NCBI RefSeq assembly: GCF_040400325.1
Contig: NZ_JBBAQK010000010.1
Span: forward strand, 7,698 to 71,697
Direction of reading: 5' to 3'
DNA length: 64,000 bases
From: Polynucleobacter sp.
GTDB taxonomy: Bacteria > Pseudomonadota > Gammaproteobacteria > Burkholderiales > Burkholderiaceae
Made by a program: the position numbers and the translations under genes. The notes under the pieces are model-generated. The model had not been told where the DNA came from and did no database searches. It saw nothing but the letters and a program-made list of their open reading frames with translations. Shown here piece after piece: positions 27,330 to 36,489 of this stretch; the stretch's first letter is position 1, and every line of letters starts with the position of its first letter.

Positions 27330-28262
27330 TTACAAGACAAAGAATTGCCCAACTTGTAAATTGAGTTCTTTGGCTAATTCAGCGCCACTGACTTTACCTG
27401 AGGCCCCTTTTGCTTTGAGGACTTCAATTTGACCTCCATGACAGGCAACAAAGAAAGAATCTAGGGTAATGGCAGTTATCTCTCCAGGCTTTCCTTTGAC
27501 CGCCCCAAACGTTGCGACCACATGCTTGTGGCAATCATAGATTTGCACTTTTTGCTCACCCAGCGTAGTCCATGCACCAGGCGCAGGATTACAAGCGCGT
27601 ATCAGGTTATAGATTTGGCTAATATGTATTGCCCAATGAATCTGTGCAGCATTGACATCAAACCAACCTTCGTAATTGGCTTGTGATTCATCTTGAGTGA
27701 TCTCTTGATGCTTGCCTGCTACCACTAGATCGGCTGCTTCTAGTAGCGCTTTCACACCAACAGGGAAAAGATGATCAAAGTAAATTTTGCCTAGAGTGTC
27801 ATCAGGCCCAATAGCCACTTCTTTTTGCAAAATCACTGGACCTTCATCCAGGCCGTCAGAAGGTCGGAAAATAGTTAAACCTGTTTTTTCTTCACCTAAA
27901 GCAATTGCCCAGTTAATCGCGCTCGGACCGCGATATTTTGGCAATAAAGATGGGTGATATTGAATCGTGCCGTGTTTAGGAATCTTGACGAGTTCTTGAG
28001 GCACAAATTGCAAGACATAAGCCATCACGCAGATATCGGCATTGCTATCTATCATGGCCTGAGCAGCATCAGGACCTTTGAGAGAGGAAAACTGCAAAGG
28101 GGTTAAGCCCTTTGCTAGTGCTGCCTCTTTGAGGACTTCGGGCTTAGTGGAATTAGGATTATCAGGCGGACAAAAAACAGCAACGAGCTCATTCCCACGA
28201 TCCAAAAAGGCCTCTAATGCTGCCTTACCAAAATCTGCACTCCCTATCAATGCAACCCGCAT
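27330..28262 (-). CDS. Formyltransferase-fold protein resembling the hydrolase domain of 10-formyl-THF dehydrogenase (would usually be auto-annotated as Fmt)
   Basis: HPSLLPKYRGPSAINW, DGLDEG, PAPGAW. Starts 1 nt after the frc stop. Confidence 0.8.
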   Translation of the reverse strand: MRVALIGSADFGKAALEAFLDRGNELVAVFCPPDNPNSTKPEVLKEAALAKGLTPLQFSSLKGPDAAQAMIDSNADICVMAYVLQFVPQELVKIPKHGTIQYHPSLLPKYRGPSAINWAIALGEEKTGLTIFRPSDGLDEGPVILQKEVAIGPDDTLGKIYFDHLFPVGVKALLEAADLVVAGKHQEITQDESQANYEGWFDVNAAQIHWAIHISQIYNLIRACNPAPGAWTTLGEQKVQIYDCHKHVVATFGAVKGKPGEITAITLDSFFVACHGGQIEVLKAKGASGKVSGAELAKELNLQVGQFFVL

Positions 28263-28263
28263 G

Positions 28264-29511
28264 TTAGATCACCTTATCATGACGTAGTGAAATCAACTCA
28301 TCAGTGGAATAACCTAATTCACTGAGAATTTCATCGGTATGCTCACCTAGTAAGGGCGAACGAGTAACCTCGGTTGGACTATCAGACATCTTGATAGGAT
28401 TACCTACGGTGAGATACTTGCCACGAATTGGGTGGTCCACTTCTACCACTGTGCCAGTAGCACGCAGCGCTGGCTCTTCAGCAATTTCTTTCATCGACAA
28501 AATAGGGCCACAAGGTATGTCGTATTGATTCAAGATATCCATGACTTCGAATTTATTTTTTGTCATGGTCCATTTTTCAATCTCGCCAAAGATTTCCATC
28601 AAGTGGGGTAAGCGTGCCATGGGTGAGGCAAAACGCAAATCAGCAATCCAATCTTCCCGACCGATTACCTTACAAACAGCTTCCCATACTGGCGCTTGAA
28701 TAATCACATACATATAGGCATTTGGATCAGTTTCCCATCCCTTACATTTCACAATCCAACCAGGCTGACCGCCGCTAGAGGCATTACCAGCACGGGGTAC
28801 CGCATCACCAAACTCACCATTTGGATACTGTGGGTACTCTTGCATCACACCAACACGCTCTAAACGCTGTTGATCACGCAATTTGACGCGGCATAAGTTC
28901 AATACAGCATCTTGCATTGCTGCTAATACTTTTTGACCACGACCAGAATGGGTACGCTGATATAAGGCAGTCACAATCCCTAAAGCTAAATGCAAGCCAG
29001 TACCACTATCGCCAATTTGCGCACCAGTGACCATCGGAGGGCCATCATCAAACCCGGTTGTCGAAGCAGAGCCGCCCGCGCATTGCGCTACGTTCTCGTA
29101 CACCTTGCAATCTTCGTATGGGCCAGGACCAAAACCTTTTACAGAAGCCATAATCATCATAGGGTTGAGCTCTTGAATCCGTTCCCAAGAAAATCCCATA
29201 CGATCTAAAGCACCCGGTGCAAAATTCTCAACCAGCACATCACACTCTTTAATTAAGCGCTCAAGAATTTCTTTACCTTTTTGAGTTTTGGTATTTACAG
29301 TAATCGAACGCTTGTTGTGATTGAGCATCGTGAAATACAAACTATCTGCATCAGGGATGTCACGCAATTGGCCGCGGGTTGCATCTCCTTCGCCTGATTT
29401 TTCTACTTTAATGACGTCAGCTCCGAACCAAGCTAGTAGCTGCGTACAAGTTGGTCCTGACTGAACATGAGTAAAGTCGAGGATTTTGACCCCTTCTAGG
29501 GCTTTTGCCAT
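28264..29511 (-). CDS. frc: Formyl-CoA:oxalate CoA-transferase, paralogue 2 (family III)
   Basis: [40 protein letters not shown] (catalytic Asp), [17 protein letters not shown]. Confidence 0.9.
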
Positions 29512-29622
29512 GATTTGCGTCCTAATAAGAATAAAATTTTGAATTGTGACAATTTTACCAGCGAGGAATCAGGCCAGTGAGAGCATGCCAAAATTTTGGG
29601 CAAAGACCGATGTAAAACCTAT

Positions 29623-30066
29623 TTAGGGCTCTATTTTGCTGGACTGAGGATTTTCAAGATCAGCAAGGCGCTTTTTCAAGGTCCGTTCCTCGGCAAAACG
29701 CTCAGTTTCATCGCGAATGACTGCCACCACTCCATTGGCATGATGGTTTTCATCGAATAGCATGCCGACCGTAAATGCAATGGATAGAGTACTGCCATCC
29801 TTGTGCCTGGCCGGAACTTTCAATACAGAAGCTCCATAGCGCGTGGTTCCAGTCAACATCGATTTACTGTAGCCCTCATTATGTCTGTGACGCTGACGCT
29901 CTGGCACGATTAAATCGACGGTATTACCAAGGGCCTCTGCTTCGGAATATCCAAAAATGCGGGTAGCCGCAGCATTCCACAGCACAATCTTTTCATTAGC
30001 ATCGGAAACAATAATGGCGTCTCCTATAGATTGAGCTAGGTGACTCAAATCGATATTCGTATTCAT
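29623..30066 (-). CDS. Stand-alone PAS-domain protein with no output domain
   Basis: DAIIVSD...IVLWNAAATRIFGYSEAEALG..VDLIVP (PAS); HKDGS (PAC); C-terminal coiled coil. 147 aa. Confidence 0.88.
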   Translation of the reverse strand: MNTNIDLSHLAQSIGDAIIVSDANEKIVLWNAAATRIFGYSEAEALGNTVDLIVPERQRHRHNEGYSKSMLTGTTRYGASVLKVPARHKDGSTLSIAFTVGMLFDENHHANGVVAVIRDETERFAEERTLKKRLADLENPQSSKIEP

Positions 30067-30072
30067 ATAGCC

Positions 30073-30078
30073 AGTCTA
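30073..30078 (-). promoter_or_regulatory. Putative extended -10 (TGa-TAGACT), 6 nt before the PAS gene ATG (leaderless candidate)
   Basis: Minus strand TGA-TAGACT-ggctat-ATG, downstream of the frc terminator. Confidence 0.5.
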
Positions 30079-30114
30079 TCAATATTTAGATTGCATCTAG
30101 TATTTTGAGGTGAG

Positions 30115-30142
30115 AAAAAAGGCGCCCACTAGGAGCGCCTTG
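30115..30142 (-). terminator. Intrinsic terminator after the oxc-frc operon
   Basis: Minus strand AAGGCGCTC-CTAGT-GGGCGCCTT followed by a T tract. Confidence 0.85.
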
Positions 30143-30161
30143 AAATGAATGCCTATTATTA

Positions 30162-31412
30162 CTAAACTGCTTTAGCTTCATGCAGCTTAGCAATTTCATC
30201 TTTGCCATAACCAAGATCAGTCAACACTTCATCAGTGTGCTCACCCAACACTGGTGAAGGCTTCACCTCAACCTCTAAATCAGAGAACTTGATTGGGCTA
30301 CCAATAGTTAAATACTTACCACGCACTTTGTGGTCAACTTCAACAATTGAACCGCTCTTACGCAAGTCTGGAGATGCAGCTAATTCCTTCATAGATAACA
30401 CTGGAGCGCATGGGATATCAAACTTACGCAGGATATCTACAGCCTCATACTTAGTCTTGTCTTTAAGCCAATCTTCAATCGTTGCGAAGATATCAAAAAT
30501 TTTATCTTGTCGAGCTTCAGCAGTCATGTACGCAGGATCAGTTGCCCATTCTGGCTTACCTAAAGCTGTAGTAATTGGCTCCCAAGCATGGCCTTGAATG
30601 GTGAAATAGATATATGCGTTTGGATCAGTTTCCCATCCCTTACACTTCAATACCCAACCTGGCTGACCGCCGCCACCAGCATTACCACCGCGTGGTACTA
30701 CATCAGAGAATGTGCCATGCGGGTACTGTGGATACTCTTCTAAATAGCCAATCTTATCTAAACGCTGCTGATCACGCAATTTCACGCGGCATAAGTTCAA
30801 TACTGCATCTTGCATTGAGCAAGAAACCTTTTGACCTTTGCCTGTTTTTTGACGTTGCATCAACGCAGTCAAAATACCGATTGCTAAATGCATACCAGTA
30901 TTAGAATCGCCCAAAGCTGCAGCAGAAACAGTCGGAGGACCATCCCAGAAACCGGTTGTTGAAGCAGCACCACCGGCACACTGAGCAACGTTCTCATACA
31001 CTTTTAAGTCTTCATATGAGTGGCCATCGCTAAAACCTTTTACTGATGCCAAAATCATTTTTGGATTGAGTTCTTGAATACGCTTCCAAGAGAAACCCAT
31101 ACGATCTAAAGCGCCAGGACCAAAGTTCTCAACCATGACATCAGAAACTTTGATCATCTTTTCTAATACTTCCTTACCCTCTGGAGTTTTGGTATCCAAA
31201 GTCAAAGAACGCTTATTACCGTTTAGCATAGTGAAGTACAAAGCATCTACGCCTGGGATGTCACGTAATTGACTACGAGTAACGTCGCCAGAACCTGGAC
31301 GCTCAACCTTAATCACGTCAGCCCCATAAAAGCCCAATAATTGAGTGCATGCAGGACCCGCTTGAACGTGGGTGAAGTCAATGATGCGAATACCGTCTAA
31401 TGGTTTAGTCAT
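30162..31412 (-). CDS. frc: Formyl-CoA:oxalate CoA-transferase, paralogue 1
   Basis: [26 protein letters not shown] (catalytic Asp), NAGGGGQPG tetraglycine loop. Confidence 0.95.
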
Positions 31413-31454
31413 GTTTATTTCTCCTTAAGTATTACGTATTTAGCTTTAGTAAAA

Positions 31455-33164
31455 TTATTTCTTAGCAGCTGCAGAAGATGGGTTTAAGTTTGTTAAACGC
31501 CCACTTTCAGTACCCGCAGTTTCATCAATAACAGCATTGATGAGGGCAGGTTTACCAGCAGCGATTGCTTCTGTTAACGCTACTTCTAATTCTGCTGGAG
31601 TAGTTACGTAGTAACCCACTCCACCAAATGCTTCGATCATCTTGTCGTAACGAGCATTTTTTACGAATACGGTCGGAGCAACATCAGCGCCGCCGGTTGG
31701 GTTCACGTCGGTGCCACGGTATACGCCGTTATTATTGAAAACAACTGTAGTGATTGGCAAGTTGTAACGGCAAATAGTTTCTAATTCCATGCCGCTAAAG
31801 CCAAATGCGCTATCGCCCTCGACTGCAACGGTTGGCAAGTTACTGATCACTGAAGCGCCAATCGCATAGCCCATACCAATACCCATAATGCCCCAGGTAC
31901 CGGAGTCAAAACGCTTACGCGGCTTATACATATTCACAATCGCACGGCAGAAGTCCAGCGTGTTTGCGCCCTCGTTTACTAAGTTCACATCAGGGTTCTT
32001 CTTAATCACATCACGAATCGCACGTAATGCCCCATGGAAGTTCATTGGACTTACGTCTTTGGCAAGTGTCTCTGCCATCTTCGCCATGTTCTTGTCTTTT
32101 TTCTCATTGATTGCTGAAATCCATTCAACGCTTGGCTTGGGAACAGAAGCAATGCCTTTTAACAATTCACCAACGCATGAACCAATGTCACCAATCAATG
32201 GTGCGGAAATTTGTACGTTGCTATCAACTTCATTGGCCTGAATATCGATCTGAATAAATTTCTTAGGCTCCTTGCCCCAGGTCTTGCCCTTTCCATGAGC
32301 CAATAACCAGTTCAAGCGCGCACCAATTAATAAGACTGTGTCAGCCTCTGCTAAAACAAACGAGCGGGCTGGGGATGCAGTTTGAGGATGATCATCTGGC
32401 AATAAACCTTTTGCCATCGACATTGGCAAGTAAGGAATACCAGACTTCTCGATCAAGTCACGGATCTCTTTATCAGCCTGCGCATAAGCGGCGCCTTTGC
32501 CCAAGAGAATCAATGGACGTTTAGCGCCTTTGAGTACATCTAATGCACGCGCTACAGCATCAGCTGCTGGAATCTGGCGCGGCACGGGATCGATTACTTT
32601 GAAAATAGACTTCTTTGCCTCTTCGGCTGGCATAGTTTGGGCTAATAACTGTGCAGGCAGGTCTAAATACACTCCGCCTGGACGACCTGAAACCGCAGCG
32701 CGAATGGCACGTGCAAAACCAATACCGATATCTTCAATGTGATTAATACGATAAGCTGCTTTACAATATGGCTTAGCAGCATTGAGCTGATCCATCTCTT
32801 CATAGTCGCCCTGTTGTAAGTCAACAATTTCACGCTCACTTGAGCCACTAATCAAAATCATCGGGAAACAATTCACAGTTGCATTGGCAAGTGCTGTTAA
32901 ACCATTTAAGAATCCTGGTGCAGAAACCGTCATACAAATACCAGGCTTTTGAGTCATGAAGCCTGCAATTGCTGCGGCATTACCTGCGTGTTGCTCATGA
33001 CGGAAACCAATAAAGCGTATTCCTTCAGCTTGAGCCAAACGACACAAGTCAGTTATTGGAATGCCAACCAGACCAAAAATAGTGTTGAGATCATTCGCTT
33101 TCAAAGCATCGATGACCAGATGAAAGCCATCAGTTAATTGTGTGTTTTGAGTATCTGTTGTCAT
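31455..33164 (-). CDS. oxc: Oxalyl-CoA decarboxylase (ThDP-dependent)
   Basis: [50 protein letters not shown]...NNNG, GTESG. Confidence 0.96.
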
Positions 33165-33289
33165 AGAAATTTTTTATACATTACAAAGGCTTATGCAGGG
33201 ACTAAATCCCTGTAGTGTCGCTTTCGCTATTGGTCTTCCATTAAGTTATTTATTGCATGCTGAGTTCAACCCAGCTTAGGCAGAGATGA

Positions 33290-33332
33290 ATATTAGGCTT
33301 GAGGAAGAGGATGATCATTGACTTCGGTCAAT
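33290..33332 (-). promoter_or_regulatory. Class II Crp/Fnr-type promoter of oxc: ATTGAC-N4-GTCAAT box (33317-33332) and -10 TAATAT (33295-33290)
   Basis: The palindrome resembles the FNR consensus TTGAT-N4-ATCAA. If the TANNNT hexamer is at -12..-7, the box centre falls at -41.5. Confidence 0.7.
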
Positions 33333-33366
33333 TTCCCCCAAATCCAGCGCCCCAAAGGGAAATTGT

Positions 33367-33984
33367 TTAGATAAAAAGCTCTTTATGCTTCGTTTTAAGG
33401 CGGCTCAAAGTCTCTGGTGAGAGGTTGAGGTAGGCTGCCAGCTCCTTTTTAGGGAGGAGCTCAAACAAGTTCTCATATTTTCGTAAGAAACGCTCTACCC
33501 GACCTGGAGCATCTAGCATATGCAAGGTAATGGTGTGAGCCATAATTTCACTCATCAGGCGCATTACCTCAAGCTCAAAAGTCTCCTTCAGAAGCTTATG
33601 CTCTTCCAGAAATTCAGCCCATTTTTTCATAGGCATGCGAGCCACACGGGTTTTGTTAACGCATGCAATACTGTAGGGGGCAGCCGTTTTAAGGCGCCAA
33701 GCAGCATAGCTAGTTTCGATATCTTTTTCGATAGCAAAACGCAAGATCATCTCTTTAGCGTCAGGACTAGAGACAATGCGCTTGAGAATACCGTCTAGAA
33801 CAAAGTATTGCTCCATCTGATGATCCCCTTGATGGAGCAATATTTCGGATTTTTTGAGATCTGATATCTCTAAAAGGCGCTCTAAATCAGCCATAACAGC
33901 CTGATCCAAGCTTTTAAGCACCGAATTTTGGCTCAACTGCAAGCGAATCAGGTTTTTTTCTGGGTGCCTATCTAATGCGGTCAT
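33367..33984 (-). CDS. Crp/Fnr-family transcriptional regulator
   Basis: cNMP-like domain (LLHQGD..YFVLDGILK) and HTH ELAAYLNLSPETLSRL (FNR-like ExxSR). No N-terminal Cys cluster. Confidence 0.9.
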   Translation of the reverse strand: MTALDRHPEKNLIRLQLSQNSVLKSLDQAVMADLERLLEISDLKKSEILLHQGDHQMEQYFVLDGILKRIVSSPDAKEMILRFAIEKDIETSYAAWRLKTAAPYSIACVNKTRVARMPMKKWAEFLEEHKLLKETFELEVMRLMSEIMAHTITLHMLDAPGRVERFLRKYENLFELLPKKELAAYLNLSPETLSRLKTKHKELFI

Positions 33985-34038
33985 GAATCCTTAATCCTAG
34001 ACCCAGCATTGTAGTCTTTTTAAGAATCCTAATTAAAA

Positions 34039-34053
34039 TATTGCATCGCAACA
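34039..34053. promoter_or_regulatory. TATTGC-ATC-GCAACA dyad (PhaR-like box) upstream of the Crp/Fnr gene
   Basis: TTGC-N3-GCAA dyad. A near-identical copy is at 53535-53549. Confidence 0.45.
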
Positions 34054-34079
34054 AAAGATACCTAATTCTCCTTAGATTC

Positions 34080-34646
34080 TCAAATATTGCGATTCATGTT
34101 GGGGCAGTTAATGAGCTCAAACTCGCCAAAGCCAATAACGTACTCAGGCCAGTCATTTGCATCTTTTAAGACCTTCTGACCACTTTTCATTAAAAAATGA
34201 AGTGCTCGTATGACTCCTGCATGAGTAATCAAAATAATCTCATCAATACCCTCAAGCTCTAACAGCATTGATTTAATTCTATGAATAAACCCCTGAACAC
34301 ACTCCTCGCCACCAAAAAAATGGCTCGGGAACGATTGAACCCATGCATCAATTTCAGCCTTTGGAATATCGCTCCAAAGTACCCCTTCCCAAACGCCGAA
34401 ATTAAACTCGTTTAATCTGCAGTCACTTTGAACAATTGCGTTAGGTCTGAGTATCTGAATCGCCTTCGCTAGGGATAGAGATCGAATCAGGCCTGAAGAA
34501 TAAATTGGCAAATTCTCAGGCAACTGACCCGATAGAGATTGAGCCAAGGAATCCAATTGAGATCTGTCGATCTCTAGATCAAGTTGCCCATAGCAGACAC
34601 CACTAGCCACTAAAGGTTTTGGATGACGGACTACCCAAATCTTCAT
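34080..34646 (-). CDS. cobC: Histidine phosphatase family, putative alpha-ribazole phosphatase
   Basis: VVRH, YSSGLIRS, LNEFNFGVWEG, ITHAGVIR. Last gene of the cob operon. Confidence 0.75.
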   Translation of the reverse strand: MKIWVVRHPKPLVASGVCYGQLDLEIDRSQLDSLAQSLSGQLPENLPIYSSGLIRSLSLAKAIQILRPNAIVQSDCRLNEFNFGVWEGVLWSDIPKAEIDAWVQSFPSHFFGGEECVQGFIHRIKSMLLELEGIDEIILITHAGVIRALHFLMKSGQKVLKDANDWPEYVIGFGEFELINCPNMNRNI

Positions 34647-35455
34647 AAGGCAATGAATGAGGCTATAAGAAGTAGACCCAAATAAAAACCGACTTCTGTA
34701 ATTTGTTGAATAGCACCTAAAGCATCTCCATTGATCCCACCAAGCCTGCTATAAAAAATTCTAAGTAACAACAATAAAACAACTATGCTTGCAAAAATAC
34801 CACCTGCCCACACCCAGCTAGGGTAACAAAGATAAATAATTAAAAATAAAGTCGCGGTCCATAGAGCACCAACTGTAAAAATAGTGAGACGCGGACCGGC
34901 AAACATTGCTTTTGATTTAGAAGAAGATATATCCCCAGAGTAAGGAAGATATGTCATGGCAACTAATACTAAAAATCTGGAGAAGATACTTGCTGCAACA
35001 ATAGCAACAAATGTCAGTGATAAGCTGATCTGTGCAAGGGCTGACAAGAAGATAATTTTGCCCAAAATAGTGCAAATCAGCGCAACCGCTCCATAGGTGC
35101 CAACCCTAGAGTCCTTCATAATCTCAAGCGCTTTTTCTCGTGTTGTAGCGCCGCCCAGTCCATCAACTAAATCTGCTAGCCCATCCTCGTGCAAAGCCCC
35201 GGTAATTAATATTGAAGCAACAATTGCCATGAAGACAGAAACCCAATAATTAGCAACTTGATTTGGTAAAAGTATCATGAAAGTGATGAATACTATTGCT
35301 GTCAATAAACCTACCAGAGATCCGATTAAGGGTAAGTAAGCAGAAGATCGAGCCAAACGCTCCTCACTAAATCCTGCCCAAAGAGCCAATGTCCCGGTAA
35401 CCGGAATTCGAGTAAAGAACTGTATGGCTAATAAAAAGTGACGAAGTGGGTTCAT
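34643..35455 (-). CDS. cobS: Adenosylcobinamide-GDP ribazoletransferase
   Basis: QFFTRIP, TGALHEDGLADLVDG, IMKDSRVGTYG, GGINGDALGA. Confidence 0.93.
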   Translation of the reverse strand: MNPLRHFLLAIQFFTRIPVTGTLALWAGFSEERLARSSAYLPLIGSLVGLLTAIVFITFMILLPNQVANYWVSVFMAIVASILITGALHEDGLADLVDGLGGATTREKALEIMKDSRVGTYGAVALICTILGKIIFLSALAQISLSLTFVAIVAASIFSRFLVLVAMTYLPYSGDISSSKSKAMFAGPRLTIFTVGALWTATLFLIIYLCYPSWVWAGGIFASIVVLLLLLRIFYSRLGGINGDALGAIQQITEVGFYLGLLLIASFIAL

Positions 35456-36489
35456 GATTCGCGAGAAACACCGGCGGACTCAAAACTAGCCATCTCATTA
35501 AGGATTAAACTAGCAGACTGGATCAGCGGCCAAGCAATCATTGCGCCAGACCCCTCTCCCAGCCTAAGCTCTAAATCAATTAACGGCTTAGCTTTCAGAA
35601 TGTCAAGCATCAAGGCATGACCCTTCTCACCTGATTGATGGGTAAAAATGCAATAGTCCAATACAGCATGGTCAATCTTAGAGGCCACCAACACGGCAGA
35701 GCTTACGATAAATCCATCCACTAGTACTACCCTTTTCTCAGCAGCTGCTTTGAGAATTGAGCCGACCATAGTAGCTATCTCAAAACCACCTAATGCCGCC
35801 AAGACCTCAATTGGATCTTTTAACTGACAATGATGTTCAAGAGCTTCACAGAGTACCTGCGTTTTTCGCTTTATAGCCTCCGCATTCAACCCTGTCCCAG
35901 CACCAGTACACAAAGCAACATCTATATTTTCAAGTTTTGAAAATAGCAGGGAAGCCGCGGAGGTATTGCCAATCCCCATTTCTCCAAGTATCAGCACATT
36001 ACCAGGTAACTCCGCAACTACTTGCATACCACTTTCAATACATTGAATTGCCTGAACATATGACATCGCAGAATGCTTAGATGAATCTGCGGTGCCTTTG
36101 CCCACTTTTCGAATCAAAAGTTTCTCTCTAGGCTCAAAGTCGTGATTCACCCCGCAATCAACCACTGTCATATGAATTTGATGCTGACGTGCCAAAACAC
36201 TTACAGCCGCTCCATCAGCCAAAAAATTCTCAACCATCTGCCATGTCACATCACTTGGAAATGCAGATACTCCACGAGCAACAATTCCATGATCACCCGC
36301 ATAGACAACCAGCTGAGGGTCAATTAATTTTGGCTCTAATGTATGTTGAATTTGCCCAATCCTAATAGCTAATTCCTCAAGACGCCCTAAAGATCCAACA
36401 GGCTTCGTTTTATTGTCTATCTTTGCCTGCAGTGTAATTAATAATTCAGCATCTTTACAAGGTGTAATTTTTGGTAATGTAATGTTCAT
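35452..36489 (-). CDS. cobT: Nicotinate-nucleotide--dimethylbenzimidazole phosphoribosyltransferase
   Basis: KTKPVGSLGRLE, GDHG, GEMGIGNT, LGGFEIA, LRLGEGSG. Confidence 0.94.
   Translation of the reverse strand: MNITLPKITPCKDAELLITLQAKIDNKTKPVGSLGRLEELAIRIGQIQHTLEPKLIDPQLVVYAGDHGIVARGVSAFPSDVTWQMVENFLADGAAVSVLARQHQIHMTVVDCGVNHDFEPREKLLIRKVGKGTADSSKHSAMSYVQAIQCIESGMQVVAELPGNVLILGEMGIGNTSAASLLFSKLENIDVALCTGAGTGLNAEAIKRKTQVLCEALEHHCQLKDPIEVLAALGGFEIATMVGSILKAAAEKRVVLVDGFIVSSAVLVASKIDHAVLDYCIFTHQSGEKGHALMLDILKAKPLIDLELRLGEGSGAMIAWPLIQSASLILNEMASFESAGVSRES

Follow-up and report, generated by a model that had tools for sequence, protein, structure and literature searches.

A gene adjacent to the oxalyl-CoA decarboxylase gene (oxc) of this freshwater Polynucleobacter sp. 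most probably encodes a dedicated, local Crp/Fnr regulator of oxalate catabolism, which would act as a class II activator of the oxc-frc unit through a palindromic TTGAC-N4-GTCAA box in the oxc promoter, and which probably senses oxalate or an intermediate of the pathway. Family, fold and box, the constant geometry of the box and its co-evolution with the regulator have all been computed; from these we infer DNA binding, activation, transcription start and ligand. In the proposed mechanism, a dimer of the regulator would read TTGAC-N4-GTCAA through its E-xx-SR recognition helices. The box would overlap the -35 position of an oxc promoter with a good -10 element (TAATAT) and no usable -35 element, and the bound dimer would most likely recruit RNA polymerase as a class II activator, switching on oxc-frc. 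The sensor domain would probably respond to oxalate or to one of the intermediates oxalyl-CoA, formyl-CoA or formate.

According to a 2024 review, how environmental bacteria regulate oxalate catabolism is understudied, and no transcription factor of oxc or frc is named there (PMC13409138). No description of a Crp/Fnr regulator of oxalate genes was found in the literature searched, a result that covers the searchable literature and is not proof of absence, and the more than 7,700 homologues of the regulator bear generic database names only.

Genomic context

The window (the whole 64,000-nucleotide stretch of DNA analyzed) contains six consecutive genes on the minus strand: the regulator gene, oxc, frc, a gene for a PAS protein, a second frc paralogue and a formyltransferase-like gene. 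The features of this region are as follows.

33984..33367, minus strand: Crp/Fnr-family regulator gene, 205 aa (open reading frame and translation)
33317-33332, strandless: predicted operator ATTGAC-TTCG-GTCAAT, ATTGACTTCGGTCAAT (direct reading, matrix and conservation)
33295..33290, minus strand: predicted -10 hexamer TAATAT, 22 nt past the last base of the box (TAAKAT in the genus)
33281..33284, minus strand: predicted oxc-frc transcription start, placed solely by reference to the -10 hexamer
33165..33283, minus strand: predicted oxc 5' leader of about 119 nt, containing a GNRA hairpin that is conserved (in relatives, TTAGC-GAAA-GCTAA)
33164..31455, minus strand: oxc, oxalyl-CoA decarboxylase, predicted first target gene (TIGR03254, 982 bits against a cut-off of 739)
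31412..30162, minus strand: frc, formyl-CoA transferase, following oxc in the unit (TIGR03253, 728 bits against a cut-off of 504)
30141..30119, minus strand: strong terminator-like hairpin directly 3' of frc (9 pairs, 6 of them G-C; AAGGCGC...GCGCCTT, then TTTTCT)
30066..29623, minus strand: stand-alone PAS protein, 147 aa, between the two frc paralogues
29511..28264, minus strand: frc2, the second frc paralogue (far above the curated NCBIfam cut-off)
28262..27330, minus strand: formyltransferase-like gene (fmt)

The hairpin 3' of frc indicates that oxc and frc probably form a single transcription unit, and it is the probable end of the regulated transcript. The same hairpin divides the cluster into oxc-frc on one side and the PAS, frc2 and fmt genes on the other. 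In the window, no box was found ahead of the PAS gene, and none upstream of the regulator gene; a box-like word with two mismatches before frc2 (29539-29552) was rejected for its wrong geometry. Since the PAS, frc2 and fmt genes lack a box here, control of the whole cluster is not explained by the regulator. The best partial NCBIfam matches of the PAS protein (29623-30066) are the PAS regions of FixL (126-241) and DosP (12-110), and the protein occurs in one Collimonas-like locus (L119) as well as in 52 of 80 Polynucleobacter loci.

The predicted oxc leader has a fold energy of -26.1 kcal/mol (z -1.55) with weak covariation, and two congeners (L014 and L022) carry a deletion of its entire middle part. 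A search of Rfam with E-values up to 1 over positions 30000-36000 returned no match, and hence no known riboswitch or leader, and no Shine-Dalgarno-like sequence is visible ahead of the oxc ATG (AAAAATTTCTATG).

A Crp/Fnr protein with a remodelled sensor domain

The open reading frame of the regulator, which by direct reading ends in ...LNLSPETLSRLKTKHKELFI, matches the cNMP-binding domain (PF00027) over residues 43-129 with 31.9 bits against a cut-off of 27.5. The match to the helix-turn-helix domain HTH_Crp_2 (PF13545) scores 19 bits against 27, so that a helix-turn-helix call from sequence falls below threshold. Structure prediction with AF2 gave one good model of five (pLDDT 81, pTM 0.76), in which eight strands forming a beta-roll are followed by helices at residues 130-156, 159-176, 179-185 and 190-204, that is, by a long predicted dimerisation helix (130-156) and a C-terminal three-helix domain of the helix-turn-helix kind. 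Foldseek aligned this model to GlxR, to the CRP of M. tuberculosis and to the FNR of A. fischeri with TM-scores of 0.79-0.80 over 197-204 columns, the DNA-binding domain included. As judged from the model, the regulator is thus a member of the Crp/Fnr family with the full Crp/Fnr fold.

The initial annotation had pointed to an FNR-type ETLSR recognition helix and to the lack of an N-terminal cysteine cluster, and both observations proved correct. The ETLSR helix, of the E-xx-SR type, occupies residues 191-195, and all five residues (E191, T192, L193, S194 and R195) are invariant among 25 orthologues with identities down to 64%; genome translations show that it is also kept in distant orthologues with an intact C-terminus. 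A search of the regulator for the four cysteine ligands of a [4Fe-4S] cluster, three N-terminal and one central, found a single cysteine, C108, which is replaced by serine or threonine in orthologues. Because this sole cysteine is not conserved, an Fe-S cluster of the FNR type is excluded.

The residues through which E. coli CRP contacts cAMP are E72, R82 and S83. In an ungapped HMMER alignment of residues 46-167 of the regulator with residues 26-147 of E. coli CRP, these contacts align to S92, A102 and P103, and the replacement of all three makes canonical binding of cAMP unlikely. The orthologue alignment reveals a set of invariant residues in the pocket region of the regulator (E90, T91, S92, Y93, W96, R97, P103 and Y104).

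The box and the oxc promoter

Direct reading bears out the palindrome ATTGAC-TTCG-GTCAAT that had been reported at 33317-33332. Its 14-bp core, TTGAC-N4-GTCAA, spans 33318-33331 with its center at 33324.5, and the box lies between the regulator gene and oxc, 35 nt past the regulator stop codon. The arithmetic of the initial annotation, which had placed a TAATAT hexamer at -12..-7 of a promoter with the box centered at -41.5, is likewise right: if +1 is 33283, TAATAT (33295..33290) falls at -12..-7 and the box center at -41.5. Relative to this predicted start, the box spans -48..-35. The class II spacing, which had been called exact, is so relative to the -10 hexamer (22 nt); with respect to the start site it is approximate, the predicted +1 carrying an uncertainty of about 1-2 nt.

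A search for a -35 hexamer at the oxc promoter yielded ATGATC at -35..-30, which agrees with TTGACA at three of six positions; the GC-rich relatives have AGGCCG or AGAGCG instead. The absence of a -35 hexamer fits an activator-dependent promoter. The -10 hexamers of the GC-rich relatives, such as TATGAT, TATAGT and TACCAT, are conspicuous.

Within the genome (2.24 Mb, 43.7% G+C, assembly 92.8% complete), the exact word TTGAC-N4-GTCAA occurs four times, one of them in the window, and about 2.5 occurrences are expected by an estimate from base composition; the word alone is therefore not significant. The remaining three exact copies lie inside long open reading frames, leaving the oxc box as the sole intergenic copy. 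When the genome was scored with a matrix derived from the related sites, 57 distinct ones in all, the oxc box ranked first with 22.3 bits, and it was the sole high-scoring match with TAnnnT at +22. The box hence stands out by its placement and conservation, and not by the rarity of the word. No further members of the regulon were found in this genome, the next-best matrix matches being located inside long open reading frames or devoid of a -10 hexamer at +22, which leaves oxc-frc as the sole predicted target operon. The regulator may also be the only Crp/Fnr protein of the cell. The other cNMP-binding domain of this genome (G000:C1:8571-8831, 75 bits) belongs to a 495-aa open reading frame, too long for a Crp/Fnr regulator. 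This Polynucleobacter would accordingly represent a minimal natural version of the system, with one regulator, one operator and one operon.

Conservation of the box and its link with the regulator

In each of the 26 genomes of the genus Polynucleobacter that a whole-genome search identified, the box lies between the regulator gene and oxc (26/26). In the aligned boxes the half-sites are invariant, the central N4 varies (CGAA, CAAA, CCAA, GCAA, GAAA), as do the flanks, and a CCTAAKATTCA block is conserved at an ungapped distance from the box. Of 80 further Polynucleobacter loci, 79 hold the regulator gene together with oxc, and none of these 79 lacks the box; TAnnnT is found at +22 in 76 of them and at +23 in the remaining 3. 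In two genomes of the same genus, of 1.6-1.8 Mb, the regulator gene and oxc are reduced to fragments with internal stops (G022:C1:422154-422978 and G029:C1:943023-944200); in reduced genomes, the two genes appear to degenerate jointly.

Beyond the genus, orthologues of the regulator with 55-67% identity are present in 77 of 401 Burkholderiales genomes and in 34 of 176 genera; below this range, the matches listed reach at most 28% identity. Comparison of 46 distant regulator loci from many families revealed that the regulator gene is usually divergent from oxc, unlike the tandem order seen here, and that TTGAY-N4-RTCAA precedes oxc, or a gene for an oxc-like TPP enzyme, in 41 of the 41 loci containing its 5' end. 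Conservation of the box upstream of oxc in relatives, a check that the initial annotation had called for, is thus complete in both sets of loci (79/79 and 41/41). Over 57 distinct sites, TTGA and TCAA are invariant, and C occupies the fifth position in 96 of 114 half-sites (84%). The geometry is directional, TAnnnT being found at +22 or +23 on the target side of 49 of 57 distant boxes and on the other side of 3 of the 57. In distant loci where frc2-fmt forms a separate operon, it carries a box of its own.

The same box also precedes tctCBA, encoding a tripartite tricarboxylate transporter (TTT), and fhs, encoding formate-tetrahydrofolate ligase, in one distant locus (L033:7677-14278) and in about 25 others, which suggests that TTT-type oxalate uptake and a formate route into the folate pool belong to the regulon.

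The dedication of the regulator to oxalate genes, proposed from the single locus, is upheld by the joint distribution of regulator and true oxc over the 401 genomes: 63 have both, 14 the regulator only, 11 oxc only and 313 neither (Fisher's exact test, p 7.5e-48). In the 11 genomes with a true oxc and no regulator, two of them from the same genus, no box was found within 4 kb upstream of oxc (0/11). The box therefore tracks the regulator, and not oxc, and its earlier designation as the cognate site of the neighboring regulator is sustained by the same counts.

In the loci compared from regulator-only genomes, the neighbor of the regulator gene and the box is a gene for a TPP enzyme with about 27% identity to Oxc (L135:6635-8329 and L119:6803-8569, and also L125, L132, L133, L139, L140, L142 and L146). 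This Oxc-like enzyme scores below every NCBIfam cut-off, its nearest entries being 'PRK05858 acetolactate synthase' and 2-hydroxyacyl-CoA lyase, and it may constitute a non-orthologous replacement of Oxc.

Alternative explanations

The same protein could act on the same box as a repressor that occludes the -35 region and is released by an inducer, a reading that we regard as unlikely. A box at -48..-35 can also block RNA polymerase, and in divergent relatives it lies about 20-90 bp from the regulator start codon, suggesting at least negative autoregulation there. Repression, however, leaves unexplained why a -35 hexamer is missing both here and in the GC-rich relatives. Furthermore, a repressor site would tolerate variable placement, whereas in about 125 sites the box and the -10 hexamer are spaced 22-23 nt apart, exclusively on the target side; such regularity is the signature of a face-of-helix contact with polymerase. 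Crp/Fnr proteins that have been characterized with sites near -41.5 are activators, which again speaks against repression. It is less probable still that another Crp/Fnr protein with a global role, such as an oxygen sensor of the FNR/ANR type, reads the box and that the neighboring regulator has another target. The core TTGA-N6-TCAA is that of FNR and FixK sites in general, additional cNMP-domain proteins of 240-270 aa occur in many Polynucleobacter genomes, and an FNR-type paralogue could hide in the missing part of the 92.8% complete assembly. The assembled genome, however, contains one other open reading frame with a cNMP domain, that of 495 aa, and nothing above the HTH_Crp_2 cut-off. The box is kept in two complete genomes (G021 and G023) whose sole cNMP-domain match is the regulator gene itself, and in a third (G013) whose one further match lies in a 635-aa open reading frame. 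In addition, the box is present where the regulator is present and absent where it is absent (0/11), and the predominant C at position 5 of the half-sites departs from the T of FNR boxes.

A purely RNA-based role of the palindrome, as a 3' stabilizer or terminator of the regulator mRNA, or its origin by chance, is the least probable of the readings considered. The palindrome lies shortly past the regulator stop codon and could fold into a stem of 6 bp closed by a loop of 4 nt, and the four exact copies in the genome compare with about 2.5 expected. The stem is nevertheless weak, with a centroid energy of -4.7 kcal/mol and a z of -0.08 against shuffles, it is not followed by a T run, and about 135 sites reveal no compensatory changes in the half-sites. 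Where the two genes are divergent, the box precedes both of them and hence lies in no 3' end, and the fixed distance to the -10 hexamer is not explained by an RNA role. A terminator scan between the regulator gene and oxc found none, and the reading as an RNA hairpin was rejected because there is no terminator and the fold is no better than that of shuffled sequences. An action as RNA hairpin alone, which the initial annotation had listed as an outcome that would overturn its proposal, is thereby set aside.

Significance of a probable dedicated oxalate regulator

Class II activation by the dedicated regulator is the best supported reading, given a -10 hexamer without a -35 hexamer, a site fixed helically over the -35 position and a protein of the FNR/CRP fold. 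On the one hand, the determinants for an Fe-S cluster and for cAMP have been lost; on the other hand, the predicted regulon consists of uptake functions, the enzymes of oxalyl-CoA and formyl-CoA, and formate assimilation. Taken together, these features make oxalate or a pathway intermediate the probable ligand. A more specific proposal, in which the remodelled pocket directly binds oxalate, an oxalate-derived CoA thioester or formate, is put forward tentatively, at somewhat less than even odds; it would make the clade of this regulator the first dedicated transcription activator described as sensing oxalate, and would establish a new effector class within the Crp/Fnr family.

The regulator and its operator constitute a concrete and widely conserved candidate for an oxalate-use switch, found in 77 of the 401 Burkholderiales genomes sampled. 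If correct, the model would explain the induction of oxalotrophy in many freshwater and soil Burkholderiales and would define a compact regulon (oxc, frc, the formyltransferase-like gene, the TctCBA transporter and fhs), indicative of the uptake system and of a connection to one-carbon metabolism. It would also provide a small one-component part for oxalate biosensors. Class II activation by Crp/Fnr proteins is a textbook mechanism, and the advance would hence reside in function and ligand, and not in principle.

Comparison with known systems

The closest relationship in DNA recognition is to FNR of Escherichia coli and Aliivibrio fischeri, with which the regulator shares the fold (TM 0.79-0.80 to A. 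fischeri FNR), the E-xx-SR helix and the TTGA-N6-TCAA core. Class II promoters of FNR, with TTGAT-N4-ATCAA centered at -41.5, have the same site-to-(-10) geometry as the predicted oxc promoter. In contrast to FNR, the regulator lacks the cysteine ligands of the [4Fe-4S] cluster, is about 45 residues shorter and has no N-terminal extension, and position 5 of its half-site is C and not the T of the TTGAT-N4-ATCAA consensus of FNR, FixK and DNR. Its regulon is also local, comprising one to four oxalate and formate operons, whereas that of FNR is a global anaerobic regulon.

CRP, GlxR and the CRP of M. tuberculosis are the best structural matches (TM 0.79-0.80) and weak sequence matches. With regard to CRP, the regulator differs in its recognition helix (E-xx-SR, not R-E-xxx-R), in its DNA motif, which is not TGTGA-N6-TCACA, and in the missing cAMP contacts. 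The closest solved structure by sequence is PDB 3dn7, a 'cyclic nucleotide binding regulatory protein' of Cytophaga hutchinsonii (E 8.6e-9, residues 34-200), which has a similar short length and a similar C-terminal '...YLG(F)TPEYLSEIRKK' helix; it is a structural genomics entry of low identity to the regulator, with no function or DNA site assigned.

In NtcA of cyanobacteria, which responds to 2-oxoglutarate, and in CprK, which responds to chlorophenol, a pocket of the cNMP type binds a non-nucleotide organic acid, and both proteins are class II activators. Their motifs (GTA-N8-TAC for NtcA and TTAAT-N4-ACTAA for CprK) and ligands differ from those of the regulator, and there is no detectable specific sequence relationship. 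In combining a non-nucleotide organic-acid ligand with class II activation, NtcA and CprK offer the closest precedent for how the regulator may work.
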